A stretch of DNA of 43,512 nucleotides from the IMG/VR virus record IMGVR_UViG_2563366800_000009, positions 1-43,512 of that record; one strand, written 5' to 3'. Shown here piece by piece: positions 1,245-37,673 of this stretch; within the stretch, counting starts at the first letter, position 1; each line of letters starts with the position of its first letter. The stretch is from a virus. Lineage: Duplodnaviria; Heunggongvirae; Uroviricota; Caudoviricetes. The notes below the pieces were generated by a model. It searched no databases and was not told where the DNA came from. It saw only the letters and a program-made list of their open reading frames with translations. A program made the translations under genes and the position numbers.

Positions 1245-2402
1245 ATGCTCACCGTTAAGCAGATTGAAGCAGCAAAGCCGAAAGAAAAACCATACCGCCT
1301 TCTCGATGGTAATGGCCTGTACCTTTATGTTCCTGTATCCGGGAAAAAGGTATGGCAGCTTCGCTACAAGATTGACGGTAAGGAGAAAATCCTGACCGTC
1401 GGAAAATATCCGCTTATGACTTTGCAGGAAGCAAGGGATAAGGCATGGACTGCGAGGAAAGACATCTCGGTTGGCATCGATCCGGTAAAGGCGAAAAAGG
1501 CTTCGTCTAACAACAATTCATTTAGTGCGATTTACAAGGAATGGTACGAGCACAAGAAGCAAGTCTGGTCAGTAGGCTATGCAACTGAACTTGCCAAAAT
1601 GTTTGATGACGACATTTTACCCATCATCGGCGGTCTTGAGATTCAGGATATTGAGCCGATGCAACTGCTGGAAGTAATCCGCAGATTTGAAGATCGCGGT
1701 GCAATGGAACGAGCCAATAAAGCCCGCAGAAGATGCGGCGAGGTTTTCCGTTACGCTATTGTCACCGGCAGGGCTAAATATAACCCGGCACCTGACCTTG
1801 CTGACGCCATGAAAGGATACCGCAAGAAGAACTTCCCGTTTCTTCCTGCCGACCAGATCCCGGCATTCAACAAAGCACTGGCAACATTTTCAGGAAGTAT
1901 CGTATCGCTCATTGCTACCAAAATTTTACGCTACACCGCCCTAAGAACGAAAGAGCTTCGTTCCATGCAATGGAAGAACGTCGATTTTGAAAACAGGATT
2001 ATCACCATCGACGCCAGTGTGATGAAGGGACGCAAAATTCATGTGGTCCCGATGTCAGACCAGGTGGTTGAACTTCTCACTACGCTAAGCTCCATCACTA
2101 AACCAGTATCAGAGTTTGTTTTTGCCGGGCGCAACGATAAGAAGAAGCCGATCTGCGAGAACGCGGTGCTGCTTGTGATCAAACAAATCGGCTATGAAGG
2201 TCTGGAAAGCGGTCACGGATTCAGGCATGAATTCAGCACGATTATGAACGAGCACGAATGGCCTGCTGACGCTATTGAAGTGCAACTGGCACATGCCAAC
2301 GGCGGATCTGTGCGTGGGATTTACAACCATGCTCAGTATCTCGATAAGCGCAGAGAAATGATGCAGTGGTGGGCGGATTATCTCGATGAGAGGGTGGCAT
2401 AG
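1245..2402 (+). CDS. intS: Tyrosine integrase IntS (P4-like family), 385 aa
   Basis: Protein begins MLTVKQIEAAKPKEKPYRLLDGNGLYLYVP, recognised as KplE1 IntS; ORF track extends it upstream to a GTG at 1209 but the ATG at 1245 gives the known 385-aa length; adjacent to tRNA. Confidence 0.9.
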   Translation: MLTVKQIEAAKPKEKPYRLLDGNGLYLYVPVSGKKVWQLRYKIDGKEKILTVGKYPLMTLQEARDKAWTARKDISVGIDPVKAKKASSNNNSFSAIYKEWYEHKKQVWSVGYATELAKMFDDDILPIIGGLEIQDIEPMQLLEVIRRFEDRGAMERANKARRRCGEVFRYAIVTGRAKYNPAPDLADAMKGYRKKNFPFLPADQIPAFNKALATFSGSIVSLIATKILRYTALRTKELRSMQWKNVDFENRIITIDASVMKGRKIHVVPMSDQVVELLTTLSSITKPVSEFVFAGRNDKKKPICENAVLLVIKQIGYEGLESGHGFRHEFSTIMNEHEWPADAIEVQLAHANGGSVRGIYNHAQYLDKRREMMQWWADYLDERVA

Positions 2403-2645
2403 CGCCACCTATAAACCGTGCAATAATCAAACTCACATGCGCATCGTTGATGATGTATGTGATCACCACAAATATCACATCTGGACTAGTTCCGTCTTCA
2501 TGCGTAGGTATCTGTTCACGCCTCCATTTCTGCAAATCCTAAAGATGAGGTTTTGGGATATCTTTTTATCCTCAGTTCTCTATCCATTCTACAAAGCAGT
2601 AATGAACCATCACAGTGTGATAGTGAGACATCCGCTACGTTAATT

Positions 2646-2671
2646 GCAGAGAAATGATGCAATGGTGGGCG
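2646..2671 (+). repeat. Degenerate duplicate of the intS 3' end (compare 2350-2375); integrase C-terminus remnant
   Basis: 26 bp with one mismatch to 2350-2375; would encode REMMQWWA as at the IntS C-terminus. Confidence 0.6.
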
Positions 2672-2742
2672 AACTGGTTACCATGCAAAACATCATGTCT
2701 TATAACGTAAATAATTATAGCTTCATTATATAAAGCCATTAT

Positions 2743-4695
2743 CTAACGAAGCCATTGGCTTGGTTTTTGTTTCAGTATATGTATCGCCCCTTGACCGGAA
2801 GCTGCCTGTTGTGCAGTTGCTAGCGTCACTATGTAGGTATTCCCTACTGTTCTTGGTTGAGTAAGGTTAAACTGCAGCGGTGAAGTATCACAGGATATGT
2901 ATTCTATTCCTGAATCAGAAGTCACCTGAAATTCAGTATATAATACACTACCGGAAGAGATAGAAATGTGAATTGCTATCTCACCTCCAGTGTATACAAA
3001 AGGTATACTTGGCATATTTGAAAAATCCTTAAAGTTAAGCATTGACGATGAACTAATAACCTCTTTGCCTACGTCATTAGTAAGTTGAACCGGTTTAGTG
3101 TAATCATAAGCCAGTAGAACGTAATAGTTTACAAAATTTACAAAACTTGAAGACGCCTTTGAAGAGCTATGCCATGTTTTTTTATTGTCCACACGGTATA
3201 TGGATTGGATGTTTAGAAACTCACTTGCCGTTGCTCTTTGCAGTATACCAGTACCTATGCCAAAATGGATATTACCAACGTCAAACACGTGGTCCTCGAC
3301 ATTTCCTGTAGTTGATAATATCGCGATATCAGGCTCTGCACTATCTTCAAGCGCTTCACTGCATTTTTCAAAGTACATAGAACCAACAGACCAACTAACA
3401 GCGTTAACAGTAGCTAAACCAGCGCCTGCTGTGGTTTCAGCTATTAATGTTCCTATTCTTGATGCCAATCCTTGCCCGAGAGTGACACCGGCACCTATGA
3501 GCTGTGGGGTTAAAGATGATGAATACGGATCATACCCATAGGACAAAGATTTTGATGTGTTATACGCAGCGACGACACCAAATTCAACACCATTAACGTT
3601 TACGTCTCCGGTTTCACCGGAGAAACCATGTGCCAAAGAGACACCTCTTGCACAATCAATTCCCATATATTGATTTACTTTATGATACCAACTCCCAAGA
3701 AGTACAATTCCAACTTCTGTGGCATTATAAGCATATATAATGTCTGTGACAGATTCTGCAACTACACCAAAACCATAAAAACCGTAAGGCGCAACATTGT
3801 TAGCATCAATATTTAATGTACCAATGTGCCTAATTCCACGAACTTGTTGTTCAGGCAATGAAAGATCCGGGGATGTTCCTACTGGTTTTTTGCTGGCGCG
3901 AACTACAGCCTTTCCACCCCATGAATAGCCACTCATCGCTTTAATAGTTGCGCCGTTTGTTTCCATCACTAAATACGATGGGATAACAACTTCATCGCTA
4001 ACAAAATATGTACAACCAGGCGTTAACTCAATAAACCCTGTTTTAATTGCCATGTTAATTGCATTTAAACAATCACTTTCAGAATAAGGTTTGGCGCCGA
4101 AGTTCTCTGGGGTGTTTAAGTTAAACCCATTAAGTAGTCCAACGCATATCCAATTATCATCTGGATGGCTTCCAGCATCAACATCATAACCGCCTTCTAC
4201 TATATCTTTCCTGGCATAAAAATACATGTTTCCATCAGGATCGTTATCATAAAGAACAGCATAGCGCTCATCATCAATATGTCCACCTGATGAAAAACTA
4301 ATATCAGACTTAAAATAGAAGTTAAGTCTGAAATGATTTTTTGCCCATACAGAAAATTGATCAGGATCATACTTCAGCACATTCGGAAAATAGAACTGCT
4401 GCGCCCCATACGCATCATAAACAGCCATAGAATGGCCCTGTACAGTAACGAATTTGGCAATCTGTCCGTTATATACCGGATATCCAGCAGCGTTAATGAT
4501 GATTGGCTGCGAAACAGGAACGTGAGAGCCGTCTTCGTTCTCCACATAAACCTGAATCTGGTTTTCAGGATTTACCGGGTCAGTGTCAATTTTACCGATA
4601 TAAATTTTGCCATTGGCAACCGCTTTAAAAGAACGCGCCATAGTGAAGAGTTGCGAAGGCATTGATACGATCACATTGGCTGTAATGTCTGTCAT
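2743..4695 (-). CDS. Tailspike protein; P22-type N-terminal head-binding domain with divergent receptor-binding/enzymatic domain
   Basis: N-terminus [34 protein letters not shown]...[13 protein letters not shown] matches the conserved P22/Sf6/HK620 tailspike head-binding domain; the rest is distinct. Confidence 0.85.
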
Positions 4696-32828: not shown

Positions 32829-33107
32829 TCAGGCCTCGAAGAATTCGCCGTTCTTCGGGGCTTTTTCTTTTGTCAGCATTCTGGCTACTTTCTTAGCCAG
32901 TTCCGCCAACTCCTCGTCTTCAACACCCCACTCCAGTACAGCCAGAAGCATGGCCATCTTTGGGATAAAGCTGTCTTTCCATCGCGAAATTTGCGATTCA
33001 TTGATCCCTAATGCGTCGGCCACCTTTCGCTGACCACGTACAGCAATTCGATTCAGGATGTTGCTTGTAATTGCATTCGCTTTCTTGCGAGTACTTGTAA
33101 GTTGCAT
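32829..33107 (-). CDS. cII: Transcriptional activator CII
   Basis: SQISRWK...MLLAVLEWGVEDEELAELAKKVA closely resembles lambda CII. Confidence 0.85.
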   Translation of the reverse strand: MQLTSTRKKANAITSNILNRIAVRGQRKVADALGINESQISRWKDSFIPKMAMLLAVLEWGVEDEELAELAKKVARMLTKEKAPKNGEFFEA

Positions 33108-33164
33108 ATGTAAGTATTTCCTTAACTAATAAGAAGTTATGCGCATCAACTTATGTGCGTTGTA

Positions 33165-33209
33165 TTCCCGCATTTCGGCGGGAATGAGGACCATGACTGT
33201 TAAAGAGCG
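33165..33209 (-). promoter_or_regulatory. nutR site: boxA (CGCTCTTTAACA on the transcript strand) followed by boxB hairpin (TCCCGCCGAAATGCGGGA)
   Basis: boxA matches the rrn-type consensus; perfect 6-7 bp stem hairpin; located between cro and cII. Confidence 0.6.
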
Positions 33210-33215
33210 GTGTTA

Positions 33216-33410
33216 CTATTTGTTTTTCTTGTTGCTTGGGAAAGGACGAACTTCCTCTCCAATCACACTGCCATCAGGCTTTACCGTAACCATGATGTTA
33301 CGGCCTGCCAGAATGGCCTTGCTGATAGCGCACTGGATTACACCAAAGTCACTGGCTGCTTTAGCCTGTCCATGGATTTTGGCGTAATCGGCAAGTGTCA
33401 TTCGAATCAT
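33216..33410 (-). CDS. cro: Cro repressor
   Basis: [32 protein letters not shown]...PFPSNKK resembles lambda Cro; GGAG RBS before ATG 33410. Confidence 0.85.
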
Positions 33411-33439
33411 ATGCACTCTCCGTTATTAACCATGAATAA

Positions 33440-33481
33440 AGAATACTACAGGTATTCAAAGCAATCAATACTCAGGGTATT
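33440..33481. promoter_or_regulatory. oR operator region with pR (and pRM): inverted repeats AATACTACAGGTATT (33442-33456) and AATACTCAGGGTATT (33467-33481); pR -35 TTGATT and -10 TATTCT on the minus strand
   Basis: Palindromes with the same half-site as the oL copies; promoter hexamers at 17-bp spacing. Confidence 0.55.
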
Positions 33482-33516
33482 TTTAGTTTAAGTACCTTAG
33501 CTATTAGAATTAAGCT

Positions 33517-34233
33517 ATGGAAAATAAAAAATCACTGACGACAGAACAGCTCGAAGACGCTAAGCGGCTTAAGGCTTTGTATGAGTCAAAAAAGAAAGAA
33601 TTGGGAATAACCCAATACTCAATCGCTGATGAACTGGGTATCACCCAAGGAGCGGTAGGGCATTATCTTAATGGCAGAAACGCGCTAAACGTTGAGGTTG
33701 CATCTGGTTTTGCACGATTGTTGCAAGTCTCAATTGCTGATTTTAGCCAGTCAATTGCTGCCAAGGTTGCAGAACAGGCAGAAAGCCTTAAGAGCGATGC
33801 CAACGTAAGGTATGCAGGGGAATACAGAGCAGGAAAGAGGTATCCGGTGTTAAGCAGTATCCAGGCTGGCTCGTGGTGTGAAGCATGCGAACCATACACC
33901 ATTAAAGACATAGATGTTTGGCTTGAGTCTGACGCGCATATTCAAGGTAATGCGTTTTGGCTTAAAGTGGAAGGTGATTCAATGACGGCACCGGTTGGGT
34001 TAAGCATTCCAGAGGGAACATTCGTTCTTTTCGATACCGGAAGGGAGGCGATCAACGGCAGCTTGGTCATAGCAAAACTTTCTGACTCTAACGAAGCAAC
34101 ATTCAAGAAGCTGATAATCGACGGCGGAAATAAATACCTCAAGGGACTTAATCCTGCATGGCCTCTCGTGCCAATCAATGGAAACTGCAAGATTATAGGC
34201 GTTGCAATTGAGACAAAACTAAGGCTGGTTTGA
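33517..34233 (+). CDS. cI: CI repressor (HTH N-terminal domain, S24-peptidase-like C-terminal domain)
   Basis: LTTEQLEDAKRLKALYESKKKELG and C-terminal LKVEGDSMTAP...TFKKL resemble lambda CI; divergent from cro. Confidence 0.9.
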   Translation: MENKKSLTTEQLEDAKRLKALYESKKKELGITQYSIADELGITQGAVGHYLNGRNALNVEVASGFARLLQVSIADFSQSIAAKVAEQAESLKSDANVRYAGEYRAGKRYPVLSSIQAGSWCEACEPYTIKDIDVWLESDAHIQGNAFWLKVEGDSMTAPVGLSIPEGTFVLFDTGREAINGSLVIAKLSDSNEATFKKLIIDGGNKYLKGLNPAWPLVPINGNCKIIGVAIETKLRLV

Positions 34234-34250
34234 TCACGCAAGGGGCGATT

Positions 34251-34619
34251 ATGGTTGGAACCGCTATAGCAAGCTTTTTTGGGATGTTGGCAATCTCGAC
34301 AATTTACGGCTTAGCGCATGCTTTTATTGCGAAATCTCTATCAGAAAAAATAAGCCAGGCTTGGGCGCATAGATCAGCTCGTTTCATGATTCTTGTGATC
34401 ATAGCAATACAAGGGATATCTGCATTTATCCTCTATGGATCAAGCTTATACCTATTGTATCAAGGCGCGACATTTACGCCTTACACCAGTGATTACGGAA
34501 CTCTATACGATGGTAGTGAAGACATCACTGTGGCTTGGATCGTCTTTGGTTTATCTATGGCCGTGTCTGTTGTAGCAGACATCATTAAGGTAATTCTCGT
34601 CTTAACCTTCGCTGACTAA
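34251..34619 (+). CDS. Small membrane protein (about 3 TM helices) directly downstream of cI at the rexAB-equivalent position
   Basis: AAGGGG RBS before ATG 34251, 18 bp after the cI stop; hydrophobic segments. Confidence 0.6.
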   Translation: MVGTAIASFFGMLAISTIYGLAHAFIAKSLSEKISQAWAHRSARFMILVIIAIQGISAFILYGSSLYLLYQGATFTPYTSDYGTLYDGSEDITVAWIVFGLSMAVSVVADIIKVILVLTFAD

Positions 34620-34750
34620 CCCATAATCCCGGCAGCAATAGCTATCGGGATCCACTTCACATATCCCGCATAAAAATCACTGAACAAGCAGACAGCGAAA
34701 AAATAAATATCCTTTGTATTCATTTGTTTATCATTATTTCATCAAAAATA

Positions 34751-34792
34751 AATACCTTGGGTATTTACACAATAAAATACCTACAGTATTCT
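34751..34792 (+). promoter_or_regulatory. oL/pL: operators AATACCTTGGGTATT (34751-34765) and AATACCTACAGTATT (34776-34790); -35 TTTACA (34764-34769), -10 TATTCT (34787-34792)
   Basis: Same half-sites and same 25-bp spacing as oR. Confidence 0.5.
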
Positions 34793-34838
34793 TTAGCCAT
34801 CAGCAGGACGCTGGAAGCCAAACGGAACAGATTGGCAG

Positions 34839-34879
34839 GCTCTTTAACATTGATGGGATTGTCCCGCCGAAATGCGGGA
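34839..34879 (+). promoter_or_regulatory. nutL site: boxA GCTCTTTAACA then boxB hairpin TCCCGCCGAAATGCGGGA
   Basis: Same boxA/boxB as nutR in opposite orientation, upstream of the N gene. Confidence 0.6.
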
Positions 34880-34986
34880 ACCAAAGAGTAGTTGGCTTTG
34901 GGGTGGCGTGAAGTGCAGCTGCACGACGGCAACCGGAAGATAAGCACCCGGCGCGTCACCGCCAAAGTCAATCATCGGAGGTCAAC

Positions 34987-35292
34987 ATGACAGTAGTCAT
35001 TACATATCTGGCTGACGATAACGCCAGAAATCGCCGCAGAGCACGCAGACAGGCTCAACGTGAACAGGCAATGCAAGAACAGCGATTGGCACGAAAAATT
35101 GCGCTAAAGCTCTCTGGTTGCGTCAGAGCAGATAAAGCAGCATCACTCGGAAGCCTTCGCTGCAAGAAGGCAGAAGAAGTCGAGCGTAAACAGAACCGTA
35201 TTTACTACCGCAAGCCACGCAGTGAAATGGGGGTGACTTGTGTTGGTCGCCAGAAAATGAAATCAGGCAGTAAGCTACTGTATGAGGGGTGA
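34987..35292 (+). CDS. N: Antitermination protein N
   Basis: Arg-rich motif NARNRRRARRQAQ near N-terminus; C-terminal RKQNRIYYRKPRSEMGVTCVGRQKMK resembles lambda N. Confidence 0.75.
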   Translation: MTVVITYLADDNARNRRRARRQAQREQAMQEQRLARKIALKLSGCVRADKAASLGSLRCKKAEEVERKQNRIYYRKPRSEMGVTCVGRQKMKSGSKLLYEG

Positions 35293-35295
35293 GAT

Positions 35296-35484
35296 ATGCA
35301 TAAATGTCAGTTCTGTGGATACATGTTTGAATCAAATGAAATGCAACGTATTTCGTTAAACCTTATCGGTAGGCCATACAACATTTGCCTAGGATGTAGC
35401 GAGAAATACAAAAACAAAGACATGTGGGACGACAATAAAAACGATATCGACTGGAATAAAGTGCCATGTATTGATGATAGTTAA
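35296..35484 (+). CDS. Hypothetical zinc-ribbon-like small protein (62 aa)
   Basis: CQFCG...CLGC motif; GAGGGGTGAG RBS. Confidence 0.5.
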   Translation: MHKCQFCGYMFESNEMQRISLNLIGRPYNICLGCSEKYKNKDMWDDNKNDIDWNKVPCIDDS

Positions 35485-35494
35485 AAATAATTAT

Positions 35495-35567
35495 GCCGCA
35501 TAGTCGGCCTTCTTTTGGCATAAACAACAGAATAAACACTGCACTGAATTATTTGAGGTGAGATATG
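35495..35567 (+). repeat. 73-bp direct repeat, copy 1 (ends with RBS and ATG of the downstream gene)
   Basis: Identical to 36021-36093. Confidence 0.85.
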
Positions 35568-36014
35568 GAAGAACAAGCAAACAAGATTCTCGTAGAACTA
35601 CTGCAAAAAGCCAGTAATGGAATAGACGCGGCTGTTTCATTTAGCCAGGCACAGATTCCTGATGTTGTTCATCAGTTGCTGCTATGGAATATGGTTGACA
35701 GTCTGATTAAAACATTAATGGCCATTCTAACAATCCCACTGGTTTTCTGGTTTATGAAGAAGCAGTGCCAAAGAGTTGAGACAGGTAAAATCGGTGATGA
35801 AGGATATTCATGGGAGAAAGGAAATCCCAAATACAGGCCGACAATGGTTTGGGATAGCAAAGGTGATATTAATCTTCTTATCATGCCATTGGTTGTAGTT
35901 TTGACTCTGTGGGGGATTTTTATTATTGGTGTAGTAACCAATATGACTTGGTTAAAAATTTGGCTGGCCCCAAAGCTTTACCTTATCGAATATGCAGCAT
36001 CATTGGTTAAGTAA
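35565..36014 (+). CDS. Membrane protein (2 TM helices) in the pL operon at the sieB-like position; candidate exclusion protein
   Basis: 149 aa; flanked by perfect 73-bp direct repeats; AT-rich. Confidence 0.6.
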   Translation: MEEQANKILVELLQKASNGIDAAVSFSQAQIPDVVHQLLLWNMVDSLIKTLMAILTIPLVFWFMKKQCQRVETGKIGDEGYSWEKGNPKYRPTMVWDSKGDINLLIMPLVVVLTLWGIFIIGVVTNMTWLKIWLAPKLYLIEYAASLVK

Positions 36015-36020
36015 TTTCAG

Positions 36021-36093
36021 GCCGCATAGTCGGCCTTCTTTTGGCATAAACAACAGAATAAACACTGCACTGAATTATTTGAGGTGAGATATG
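36021..36093 (+). repeat. 73-bp direct repeat, copy 2
   Basis: Identical to 35495-35567. Confidence 0.85.
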
Positions 36094-36561
36094 ACAAAAT
36101 CATGGAGCGTACCTTTTCCTGAATCAGAAACTGAACATGATGGAATGCCTGTTTTCTGGAGATTCCAAGCGACAGTTGAAGAAGATGGAATCAAAATATT
36201 CGCACTTCAATATATAGCTTTTCATCAGACAGAGCATTATGCATGGTTGGTTCCTGCGCATTGGATTGTTAATTTTAAACCAGCACCAAATCAGTGGTTA
36301 CAGGAATGGAAACAAAGGAGAAATAGATATGCAATTAAGAAAGTAGCAAAAAATGCAGAAAGATCTTTTGCGTTCCCGACGAAGAAACTTGCCATTGAAA
36401 GTTTATTGCGCCGGAAGAAATACCATTTGATGAGAATCAAACAAGATTTGGCTGTTGTATCAACTCTTGTTGATGGGATGAAGAATATTGATACATCAAC
36501 ACCAGATATTGAATATAACTTTGGACACAACCAAGAAACAGAAAATTGGGTGTTTTATTAG
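36091..36561 (+). CDS. Hypothetical 156-aa protein
   Basis: Start supplied by repeat copy 2; no recognisable motif. Confidence 0.55.
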   Translation: MTKSWSVPFPESETEHDGMPVFWRFQATVEEDGIKIFALQYIAFHQTEHYAWLVPAHWIVNFKPAPNQWLQEWKQRRNRYAIKKVAKNAERSFAFPTKKLAIESLLRRKKYHLMRIKQDLAVVSTLVDGMKNIDTSTPDIEYNFGHNQETENWVFY

Positions 36562-36704
36562 TATGAATAAGCACTGTGTATTCATTCCAACGAGTGAATA
36601 CACGGAGCAATGTCGCTCGTAACTAAACAGGAGCCGACTTGTTCTGATTATTGGAAATCTTCTTTGCCCTCCGATGTGAGGGCGATTTTTTTGATGGAGG
36701 ATAT

Positions 36705-37673
36705 ATGAGTGAAGTAACAGATTTAGTTGTTATTGAAAAAGCAAATGCAATGACTGTATTTCAGTCTGCCGACCAGATTGAAGAAATCCTTCAAAAGGTT
36801 GAACGTGAAGTTATGTCCTTTGTGCCTGATATCACAACGGCAAAGGGCAGAAAGGAGATCGCTTCTCTGGCGTATAAAGTTGCGCAGACGAAAACATATC
36901 TCGATGGTCTTGGAAAAGACCTTGTTGCTGAACTGAAGGAAATTCCAAAGCTAATTGATGCCAACCGCAAGACAGTGCGTGATCGCCTTGATGAGCTGAA
37001 ATCCAAGGCACGCCAGCCTCTTACTGATTATGAGGAGGAACAGGCACGGATTAAAGCCGAAGAAGAAGCTAAGGCAGCAGCTGAAGCTCTCGCAAAGCAA
37101 ATTGAGTCTGACCATGAAATAGCTATTTTGATGGATCGCGAATTTGACCGCCAAAGAGAAGAGGCAAGACTCAAAGCGGAGCAGGAAAAGCGAGAGCATG
37201 AAGAACGCTTAAAAAGAGAAGCTGAAGAGAAAGCCAGAGCAGAAGCCGAAGCAAAGGCAAAAGCCGAAATTGAAGCAGCAGCAAGGCGAGAAGCAGAAGC
37301 TAAGGCCGCAGCGGAACGTGCAGAGCGTGAACGCATTGAAGCCGAGCAACGAGCACAGCGCGAAGCAAAAGAGGCAGCAGAACGAGCTGAAAGAGAAAAG
37401 CAGGCGGCAATTGAAGCAGAACGCCGAAAAGCACAGGAGGAGGCTGAACGAATCCGGCGCGAGGCTGAAGCAAAAGAGCAAGCCAGAATAGCAGAAGAAA
37501 AAAGAATCAAGGACGAAGAAGAGCGTAGAGCAAAGGATAAAGCTCACCGGAAAGAAGTAAATAACAAAATACTTGCTGACCTTATCAAGGTTGGCGCATC
37601 AGAAGATGTTGCTAAAAATATCATAACAGCCATCGTAAAAGGCAAAGTATTCGCAACAAAAATAACCTACTAA
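36705..37673 (+). CDS. Coiled-coil protein with long Ala/Glu/Lys/Arg-rich low-complexity region (TolA-like repeats)
   Basis: GGAGG RBS before ATG 36705; about 150 aa of EAKAKAE/AERAERE-type repeats. Confidence 0.55.
   Translation: MSEVTDLVVIEKANAMTVFQSADQIEEILQKVEREVMSFVPDITTAKGRKEIASLAYKVAQTKTYLDGLGKDLVAELKEIPKLIDANRKTVRDRLDELKSKARQPLTDYEEEQARIKAEEEAKAAAEALAKQIESDHEIAILMDREFDRQREEARLKAEQEKREHEERLKREAEEKARAEAEAKAKAEIEAAARREAEAKAAAERAERERIEAEQRAQREAKEAAERAEREKQAAIEAERRKAQEEAERIRREAEAKEQARIAEEKRIKDEEERRAKDKAHRKEVNNKILADLIKVGASEDVAKNIITAIVKGKVFATKITY

Follow-up and report, generated by a model that had tools for sequence, protein, structure and literature searches.

hkaS, a conserved membrane-protein gene behind the HK620-type cI repressor, as a possible exclusion gene of lysogens

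Genes that are co-transcribed with a prophage repressor are made in every lysogen, and in the cases that have been studied (rexAB, stk, hex) it depends on them which other phages are able to grow there. The question raised by the locus considered here is what the gene in this position contributes in a P22-like (Lederbergvirus-type) E. coli phage or prophage, of which the structural half resembles IME10 and HZ41 and the early region resembles HK620. The window, that is the whole stretch of 43,512 nucleotides that was analysed (IMG/VR record IMGVR_UViG_2563366800_000009), carries behind the cI repressor gene an open reading frame for a protein of 122 amino acids (34251–34619, plus strand). An earlier note on this DNA placed the frame at the equivalent of the lambda rexAB locus, did not recognise its product, and proposed a novel single-gene membrane protein acting in exclusion or abortive infection.

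As an open reading frame, the gene is already on record. It is hkaS of coliphage HK620 (AAK28867.1), with 99.2% amino acid identity, located in an immunity region that is 99.4% identical to that of HK620 at the DNA level and next to a cI that is 99.6–100% identical to the cI of HK620/mEpX2. The HK620 product was annotated as 'unknown' in 2001, and the gene is labelled 'HkaS protein' in HK630 and 'hypothetical protein' in other records. Over its full length (residues 1–122 of 122) the protein matches PHROG 6534 (E 2.4e-79), which is annotated as unknown function, and there is no difference between this entry, HK620 hkaS and the gene in the window. Since the gene has been annotated as hkaS since 2001 and is included in PHROG 6534, the word novel is overstated for the reading frame itself; the statement that the protein is not recognisable holds in so far as no characterised relative was found. 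Neither a mention nor a functional study of hkaS was found in the literature searched, the HK620 genome paper (Clark et al. 2001) lying outside it. The 16 phage records that contain hkaS are exactly the 16 of which cI is at least 99% identical to the cI of the window, and they include the P22-like podoviruses HK620, HZ41 and HF4s, Lambdavirus HK630, mEpX2 and HK140, and two Stx2c-converting phages. Of 5,426 complete E. coli genomes, 146 (about 2.7%) also carry the gene, always on the chromosome and always as a 'hypothetical protein'.

The position of hkaS follows from the anatomy of the immunity region. Divergently from cI, on the minus strand, lies cro (33216–33410), which matches PHROG 35 (transcriptional repressor) as well as the HK620 cro annotation. 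Putative OR operators, to which no strand is assigned, can be placed at 33441–33457, 33466–33482 and, for a third site, about 33490–33506, on the basis of the pattern AAATACnnnnnGTATTT, the HK620 annotation and conservation across diverged loci. The hexamer TAGAAT at 33505–33510, 6 nt before the cI ATG, is assigned as a pRM-like −10 element by analogy with lambda; a TAGAAT or TACAAT hexamer is conserved 6–8 nt upstream of the cI start in diverged loci, which would fit a lambda-like pRM and a leaderless cI mRNA. The cI gene (33517–34233, plus strand) encodes a repressor of 238 amino acids with HTH_3 and Peptidase_S24 domains and ends with TGA at 34231–34233. On the same strand, hkaS runs from ATG at 34251 to TAA at 34617–34619, and is preceded by a Shine–Dalgarno sequence, AAGGGG (34240–34245), which was read from the sequence, lies 5 nt before the start codon and is kept as a purine-rich element in homologous loci. 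The good ribosome-binding site described earlier is thus present, and the distance between the cI stop and the hkaS start, given before as 18 bp, is a gap of 17 nt. A scan of the window gave neither a promoter-like nor a terminator-like site in the gap from cI to hkaS, and no Rfam RNA families were found in 33000–36200. Thus hkaS has the arrangement of a repressor-operon accessory gene, on the cI strand, after cI and before oL, and without a promoter or terminator in between, and the slot is indeed the one that is occupied by rexA-rexB in lambda.

In the region beyond hkaS, operator-like palindromes and a pL-like promoter are likewise present, as the earlier note had proposed; nutL and N come next. 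The OL operators, placed by the same pattern and the HK620 annotation, are at 34705–34721, 34750–34766 and 34775–34791 (plus strand), and a promoter scan indicates a sigma-70-like pL at 34764–34792 on the plus strand, with −35 TTTACA (34764–34769), a 17-nt spacer and −10 TATTCT (34787–34792). The nutL site (34838–34879, plus strand), with boxA GCTCTTTAAC at 34839–34848 and a boxB hairpin at about 34863–34878, was assigned by transfer of the HK620 annotation, from the sequence and by its conservation. The first gene of the pL operon encodes the N antiterminator (34987–35292, plus strand; PHROG 271, E 6.9e-36; Pfam N_peptide below threshold). A hydrophobic minus-strand reading frame of 35 amino acids (34616–34723) was considered as a convergent small toxin-like gene and rejected; its ATG falls within one of the operator-like palindromes, and in relatives just 3–28 codons of the frame are left.

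Regarding the end of the transcript, the best candidate (tImm) is probably a GC-rich hairpin at 34626–34651 on the plus strand. The segment 34610–34750 folds to −21.6 kcal/mol (z −2.1), with this hairpin in both the MFE and the centroid structures, and in the first 60 nt past the hkaS stop codon the hairpin is formed alone (−13.7 kcal/mol, z −4.3). Its position is kept in relatives: a GC-rich hairpin is found 15–35 nt after the hkaS stop in all 12 diverged loci that were compared, with folding energies of −12.8 to −18.5 kcal/mol (z −1.7 to −5.0) and with stems that differ in sequence between loci, mostly on a CCCGG...CCGGG theme. In two of the 12 (L021 and L025) it is followed by a U-tract, as in a canonical terminator. 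The feature annotated as 'tIMM' in HK620 maps to 34701–34731 in the window, over an operator-like palindrome which every HK620-type locus has kept; the feature can more probably be read as a third, or additional, OL site. Synonymous-codon identity at the 3' end of hkaS is just slightly raised (0.45–0.58 versus 0.28–0.51 elsewhere), which gives no indication of a recombination boundary or RNA element at this end and implies that the conservation there is at the protein level.

That hkaS is a genuine gene is confirmed by its conservation. In IMG/VR, the 122-codon frame is intact in 80 of the 80 loci retrieved, representing 24 protein alleles, and a cI stop codon is present about 17–19 nt upstream in all 79 of these for which upstream DNA is available. 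Homologues down to 52% identity keep a length of 121–122 amino acids, the ATG and a purine-rich Shine–Dalgarno sequence, and 22 columns are invariant across 28 sequences of the family. In pairs with unsaturated dS, synonymous sites being saturated in most pairs, dN/dS (Nei–Gojobori) is 0.14–0.20 for hkaS and 0.017–0.03 for the adjacent cI. A chance reading frame or a decaying remnant could explain why the N-terminus is frameshifted in a few database entries (P0006, P0007, P0009), but this reading is contradicted by the dN/dS values of hkaS, the intact frame in every IMG/VR locus, the nearly constant length and invariant columns, and the conserved start codon and Shine–Dalgarno sequence, as well as by the confidence of the AlphaFold2 model (pLDDT 92 from just seven sequences), and can hardly be taken seriously.

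The predicted product is a compact three-pass inner-membrane protein with its N-terminus outside and its C-terminus inside. Three hydrophobic segments (about 3–27, 44–70 and 93–121; Kyte–Doolittle), the AlphaFold2 model and the charge bias of the loops agree on this, in line with the roughly three transmembrane helices that had been proposed before. The layout would be TM1 (about 3–27), a basic cytoplasmic loop (28–44), TM2 (about 44–70), an acidic periplasmic loop with a beta-hairpin (71–92), TM3 (about 93–113) and a conserved C-terminal tail (114–122). Among 28 family members, loop 1 has on average 5.2 lysine and arginine residues, and loop 2 has 0.4 of these and 3.0 aspartate and glutamate residues; by the positive-inside rule, this bias implies that the N-terminus is out, loop 1 in, loop 2 out and the C-terminus in. 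In the AlphaFold2 model (pLDDT 92.1, pTM 0.79, seven input sequences), helices are formed by residues 2–29, 31–38, 41–73 and 89–121, with a short beta-hairpin in the periplasmic loop. Conservation is strongest in the C-terminal tail I-(L/F)-V-L-T-F-A-D, where the mean entropy is 0.5 bit as compared to 1.2–1.4 elsewhere. A basic cytoplasmic juxtamembrane motif (K33-x-x-Q36-A-W38-x-H40-R41-x-A43-R44-F45) is conserved as well, as are the periplasmic ends of the helices (G3/A5/S8/F9/G11; S65/Y67/L69/Y70/T74; A95/W96/F99/G100), and within the membrane Q54 in the middle of TM2 and the pair D110/K113 in TM3 are invariant. The most variable parts are the tip of the periplasmic hairpin, in a loop that is acidic and rich in tyrosine and glycine, and lipid-facing positions in the middle of the membrane.

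Searches for relatives gave no link to any characterised protein, including RexB and abortive-infection (Abi) proteins, a relationship to which would have made hkaS a member of a known group. A comparison with lambda RexB gave an hhalign probability of 0.2–0.7% and a BLASTP E value of 3.7; with P22 SieA the hhalign probability was 0.6%, and the cytoplasmic motif of SieA (FnRYPnEAnnFNK) is absent from the hkaS alignment. Pfam returned sub-threshold noise only (Cation_ATPase_C, E 0.0035; TssN), sequence searches of NCBIfam and PDB gave no matches, the defence HMMs of PADLOC-DB v2 gave no family at E values up to 10, and among PHROGs nothing matched other than 6534, holin PHROGs included. When the model was compared with PDB and BFVD by Foldseek, no match had an E value of 0.001 or better, and generic helical bundles were returned at most. 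In a set of 5.8 billion proteins, two profile searches reached saturation with an identical group of 33 clusters, and no hit fell in the range from E 7e-39 to E 10; every cluster belongs to Enterobacterales (Escherichia, Salmonella, Citrobacter, Klebsiella aerogenes, Cronobacter, Hafnia) and none has a protein name. An exhaustive HMMER search of 1.84 billion representatives at 50% identity found the family's own representative and one fragment of 44 amino acids only, and a GTDB scan with one genome per species found no copy of hkaS. Judged by sequence similarity in the sets searched, the family is closed and confined to Enterobacterales.

The neighbourhood of hkaS is conserved. In all loci examined, of which the homologues represent 12 protein clusters, reach down to 52% identity and originate from Salmonella, Hafnia, Klebsiella, Citrobacter, Cronobacter and metagenomes, the order is a divergent cro, cI, hkaS and, after 350–1200 bp, the pL operon. 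The gap between cI and hkaS is 17–21 nt in every examined locus where upstream DNA is present, and in most loci the pL operon is led by an N-family gene, with the replication genes and the N family varying in a mosaic fashion. In loci with an HK620-type repressor, cI is 85–95% and cro 74–92% identical, and hkaS just 49–83%; in amino acids, hkaS diverges 4–35 times faster than the adjacent cI (dN 0.07–0.45 versus 0.002–0.09) at similar synonymous divergence. Two clusters, P0032 (loci L021 and L022) and P0025 (loci L025 and L026), have hkaS behind repressors with unrelated N-terminal DNA-binding domains. When compared to the cI of the window, these repressors are 15–28% identical over residues 1–80 and 85–92% identical in the C-terminal S24 domain. 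L021 and L022 have a P22_Cro-type cro and TTAAG-rich operators, and the gene at the cro position of L025 matched no Pfam family, so that the hkaS cassette is found with three types of repressor specificity. The conserved unit is the C-terminal domain of cI together with hkaS, with specificity determinants on either side that have been exchanged. Relatives of cI without hkaS are those of CharmingMan (77% identity in the C-terminal domain), Fostie (62% overall) and the HK633/Sf6 type (52% overall). In the HK633/Sf6 immunity module, the same slot is filled by an unrelated protein with a signal peptide. Close physical linkage can explain the unit, and leaves room for a functional connection.

What the protein does in the lysogen can be approached by comparison with known systems. 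Exclusion is conferred by every characterised gene that shares a transcript with a lambdoid repressor (lambda rexAB, 933W stk, 434 hex; PMC3564112), and P22 SieA, a small inner-membrane protein with three transmembrane segments, is alone sufficient to block DNA delivery (PMC10461980). Because of these precedents, exclusion is the leading hypothesis: hkaS may encode a lysogen-expressed accessory protein of the inner membrane that excludes superinfecting phages, a reading to which we would give somewhat less than an even chance. Exclusion of any kind, by whatever route, could be put anywhere from below even to just above it. As judged from the anatomy of the locus, hkaS would be the second and last cistron of the HK620-type repressor operon, sharing with cI the transcripts that start at pRM in lysogens and at pRE while lysogeny is being established, and would be translated from its own strong Shine–Dalgarno sequence; the transcript would end at the hairpin before oL. 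The protein would then act at the cytoplasmic membrane of the lysogen against superinfecting phages, and the most probable mechanism would be interference with the entry of the genome across the inner membrane, as with SieA of P22, Imm of T4 and gp15 of HK97. Since hkaS has no soluble domain able to sense infection, a block of genome entry is favoured over killing of the infected cell.

None of the known proteins is a close counterpart. RexB of lambda, which has four transmembrane helices as compared to the three predicted here, is also a small polytopic inner-membrane protein whose gene lies on the cI strand in the slot that separates the cI stop from oL/pL, and both are presumably made in the lysogen; RexB is, however, unrelated in sequence and longer (144 versus 122 amino acids), and hkaS lacks a RexA partner. 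T4 Imm and HK97 gp15 are inner-membrane blockers of phage genome entry that have no sequence relation to hkaS, the sole PHROG match of which is 6534, and that differ in the number of transmembrane segments and in genomic context. These two small membrane proteins, which are cited in PMC11436027, are each sufficient alone for exclusion at the DNA-entry step. Like hkaS, SieA is a single small prophage-expressed protein of the inner membrane with three predicted transmembrane segments and a cytoplasmic motif that is conserved while the remaining sequence diverges (PMC10461980), but it has 162–164 amino acids, is expressed from its own promoter next to gene 16/mnt, outside the repressor operon, and shows no homology to hkaS. 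With 434 Hex and 933W Stk, hkaS shares the gene arrangement of pRM, cI and accessory gene; both confer heterologous exclusion and Hex also affects repressor autocleavage, yet Hex is a protein of about 6 kDa obtained by purification from cell extracts and Stk a tyrosine kinase (PMC3564112), whereas the prediction for hkaS is an integral membrane protein that has hardly any soluble part.

Several further observations can be counted in favour of exclusion. The SieA family shows fast divergence around a conserved cytoplasmic motif (PMC10461980); hkaS has its 4- to 35-fold faster amino acid divergence than cI, and the tip of its periplasmic loop is among the most variable parts. The window is also without a recognisable SieA, SieB, RexA (by tblastn) or RexB, and no HK620 hkaP could be recognised in it either. 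Counted against exclusion are the finding that, in the searches that were run, no exclusion or defence protein already known was homologous to hkaS or similar to it in fold, and the fact that purifying selection combined with fast divergence is also typical of small membrane proteins outside arms races. Furthermore, the most conserved surfaces face the cytoplasm, a pattern that a partner in the cytoplasm would explain no less well than a block of the periplasmic entry machinery, and since the gene is carried by phages of different virion types, the protein is not tuned to one type of virion.

Killing of the infected cell instead of a block of entry can also be envisaged, with hkaS as an oligomeric pore or channel, like RexB or a holin, that is triggered by an incoming phage and then depolarises the infected lysogen. 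Class I holins have three transmembrane segments with the N-terminus out and the C-terminus in, which is the topology predicted for hkaS. Together with the position in the rexAB slot, the invariant polar residues within the membrane (Q54, D110, K113) and a small-residue motif (G3-x-A5-x-x-S8-F9-x-G11) that could mediate helix packing, this makes a pore conceivable. Nevertheless, topology is all that is shared with holins: hkaS is located in the immunity region and not in a lysis cassette, its C-terminal tail is hydrophobic and ends with FAD instead of being charged, and it has no match with holin PHROGs or Pfam families. Neither RexB nor the Abi models of PADLOC show homology, there is no gene for a RexA-like sensor, cI directly abutting hkaS, nor a soluble domain by which the protein itself could sense infection, and a pore-former that is made constitutively in every lysogen would need tight gating, for which no partner is visible. 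We regard an abortive-infection effector of this kind as quite unlikely. A role in the membrane without any part in phage defence, through lysogenic conversion or host fitness, can be considered unlikely too, if less so; hkaS might modulate a host transporter, a protease or envelope stress, or provide immunity to a membrane-active toxin. The immunity proteins against E1-type pore-forming colicins are small and have a three-transmembrane layout, and hkaS resembles these and other small regulators of inner-membrane proteins in size and layout. It is kept intact in prophages of many Enterobacterales, and no role has been assigned to the unrelated secreted protein in the Sf6/HK633 slot. On the other hand, homology to any such family is absent in Pfam and NCBIfam, and the occupants of the slot that have been characterised are exclusion genes (PMC3564112).

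The linkage between hkaS and one type of repressor domain suggests still another role, namely modulation of the lysis–lysogeny switch through the C-terminal domain of cI, by damping or tuning of RecA-mediated autocleavage or by tethering of cI to the membrane, with any exclusion being secondary. The gene is always linked to one type of cI C-terminal domain (85–92% identical), despite N-terminal domains (15–28%), cro genes and operators of other types, and relatives of cI with a C-terminal domain that is at most 77% identical are without hkaS. The best conserved parts of the protein face the cytoplasm, and the slot offers two precedents: 434 Hex blocks RecA-mediated autocleavage of the repressor (PMC3564112), and the switch is shifted by lambda RexA, which binds CI (bioRxiv 10.1101/2021.04.19.439022). 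However, position alone can account for the linkage, as just 17–21 nt separate the genes and recombination events within the cI linker and close to oL would keep the C-terminal domain and hkaS together. Only about 30 residues of hkaS are exposed to the cytoplasm, the protein diverges much faster than its supposed partner, and an interaction of hkaS with cI is purely hypothetical, so that we consider this role rather unlikely. An extended form of the same idea is that hkaS is a membrane-anchored partner of the repressor C-terminal domain, the two forming a functional unit across at least three unrelated DNA-binding specificities. Within such a unit, the membrane protein might adjust how readily the repressor is cleaved, or how much of it is available, in response to what happens at the membrane; superinfection or envelope stress would in this way be coupled to the lysis–lysogeny switch, and phages perhaps be excluded as well. 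We know of no such link between a membrane protein and the repressor in lambdoid phages, and in our view this proposal is improbable.

If hkaS does exclude superinfecting phages, as is tentatively preferred here, it would join the accessory proteins of prophage repressor operons or the single-gene membrane exclusion proteins, which are kinds already known, and would at the same time found a single-gene, membrane-only defence family that is unrelated to those in current defence databases. The gene is present in the model phages HK620, HK630 and mEpX2, including isolates that are handled on E. coli K-12, and in Stx-converting phages, and has been labelled 'unknown' for 25 years; an exclusion function would therefore matter for the prediction of phage host range in E. 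coli. If, on the other hand, the protein works through the C-terminal domain of the repressor, it would add a new layer to a classic genetic switch.

The C-terminal (Peptidase_S24) domain of the cI repressor and hkaS, the gene for the predicted three-TM protein behind it, form what sequence comparison presents as a conserved cassette (window 33820-34619; 2348-3369 and 1414-2478 in the homologous loci L021 and L025). Within it, the cI C-terminal domain retains 85-92% identity, while around it unrelated types substitute for the N-terminal DNA-binding domain of cI, for cro and for both operator sets, so that the cassette is carried with at least three specificities.

A conserved -10-like hexamer (TAGAAT/TACAAT, window 33505-33519) is positioned 6-8 nt 5' of the cI ATG, which suggests that the cI mRNA is leaderless, as in lambda. 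In contrast to this presumed leaderless cI, hkaS has a strong SD, so translation may be more efficient for the membrane protein than for the repressor.

The terminator annotated in HK620 as tIMM, which corresponds to window 34701-34731, overlaps an operator-like palindrome, AAATATCCTTTGTATTC, that is kept in all HK620-type loci. Directly 3' of the hkaS stop there is a hairpin (34626-34651), the structure of which is conserved across 12 loci with differing stems, two of them adding a U-tract. Of these two candidates, the hairpin is the likelier end of the cI-hkaS transcript. Convergent to hkaS, a 35-aa hydrophobic ORF (34616-34723, minus strand) starts within the operator-like palindrome; it is probably spurious, since its frame is not conserved and spans 3-28 codons in relatives. 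One divergent branch (L025 and L026) has a convergent insertion between hkaS and oL, an additional 68-aa gene (MKHDELEEDRAAF...; minus strand, L025 2520-2726 and L026 541-747), with a bidirectional-looking terminator common to hkaS and this gene.

Similarity to HK620 stops at about 35178, within N (34987-35292). The C-terminus of N and the downstream genes for a 62-aa Cys-rich protein (35296-35484), a 156-aa protein (36091-36561) and a coiled-coil protein of 340 aa rich in Glu, Ala and Lys (36651-37673), all in PHROGs of unknown function, derive from other lambdoid lineages. Just 3' of N, the pL operon also encodes a second uncharacterised apparent membrane protein, of 149 aa with hydrophobic, apparently membrane-spanning segments (35565-36014, plus strand; PHROG 3054, unknown function), which would be produced early in lytic growth and not in lysogens.

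In the Sf6/HK633 immunity module, where cI is 52% identical, the slot equivalent to that of hkaS holds an unrelated protein, a 134-aa homologue of Sf6 gene 38 that carries a signal peptide (2409-2813 in the HK633 locus, L018). The slot appears to gather envelope-targeted proteins to which no function has been assigned.
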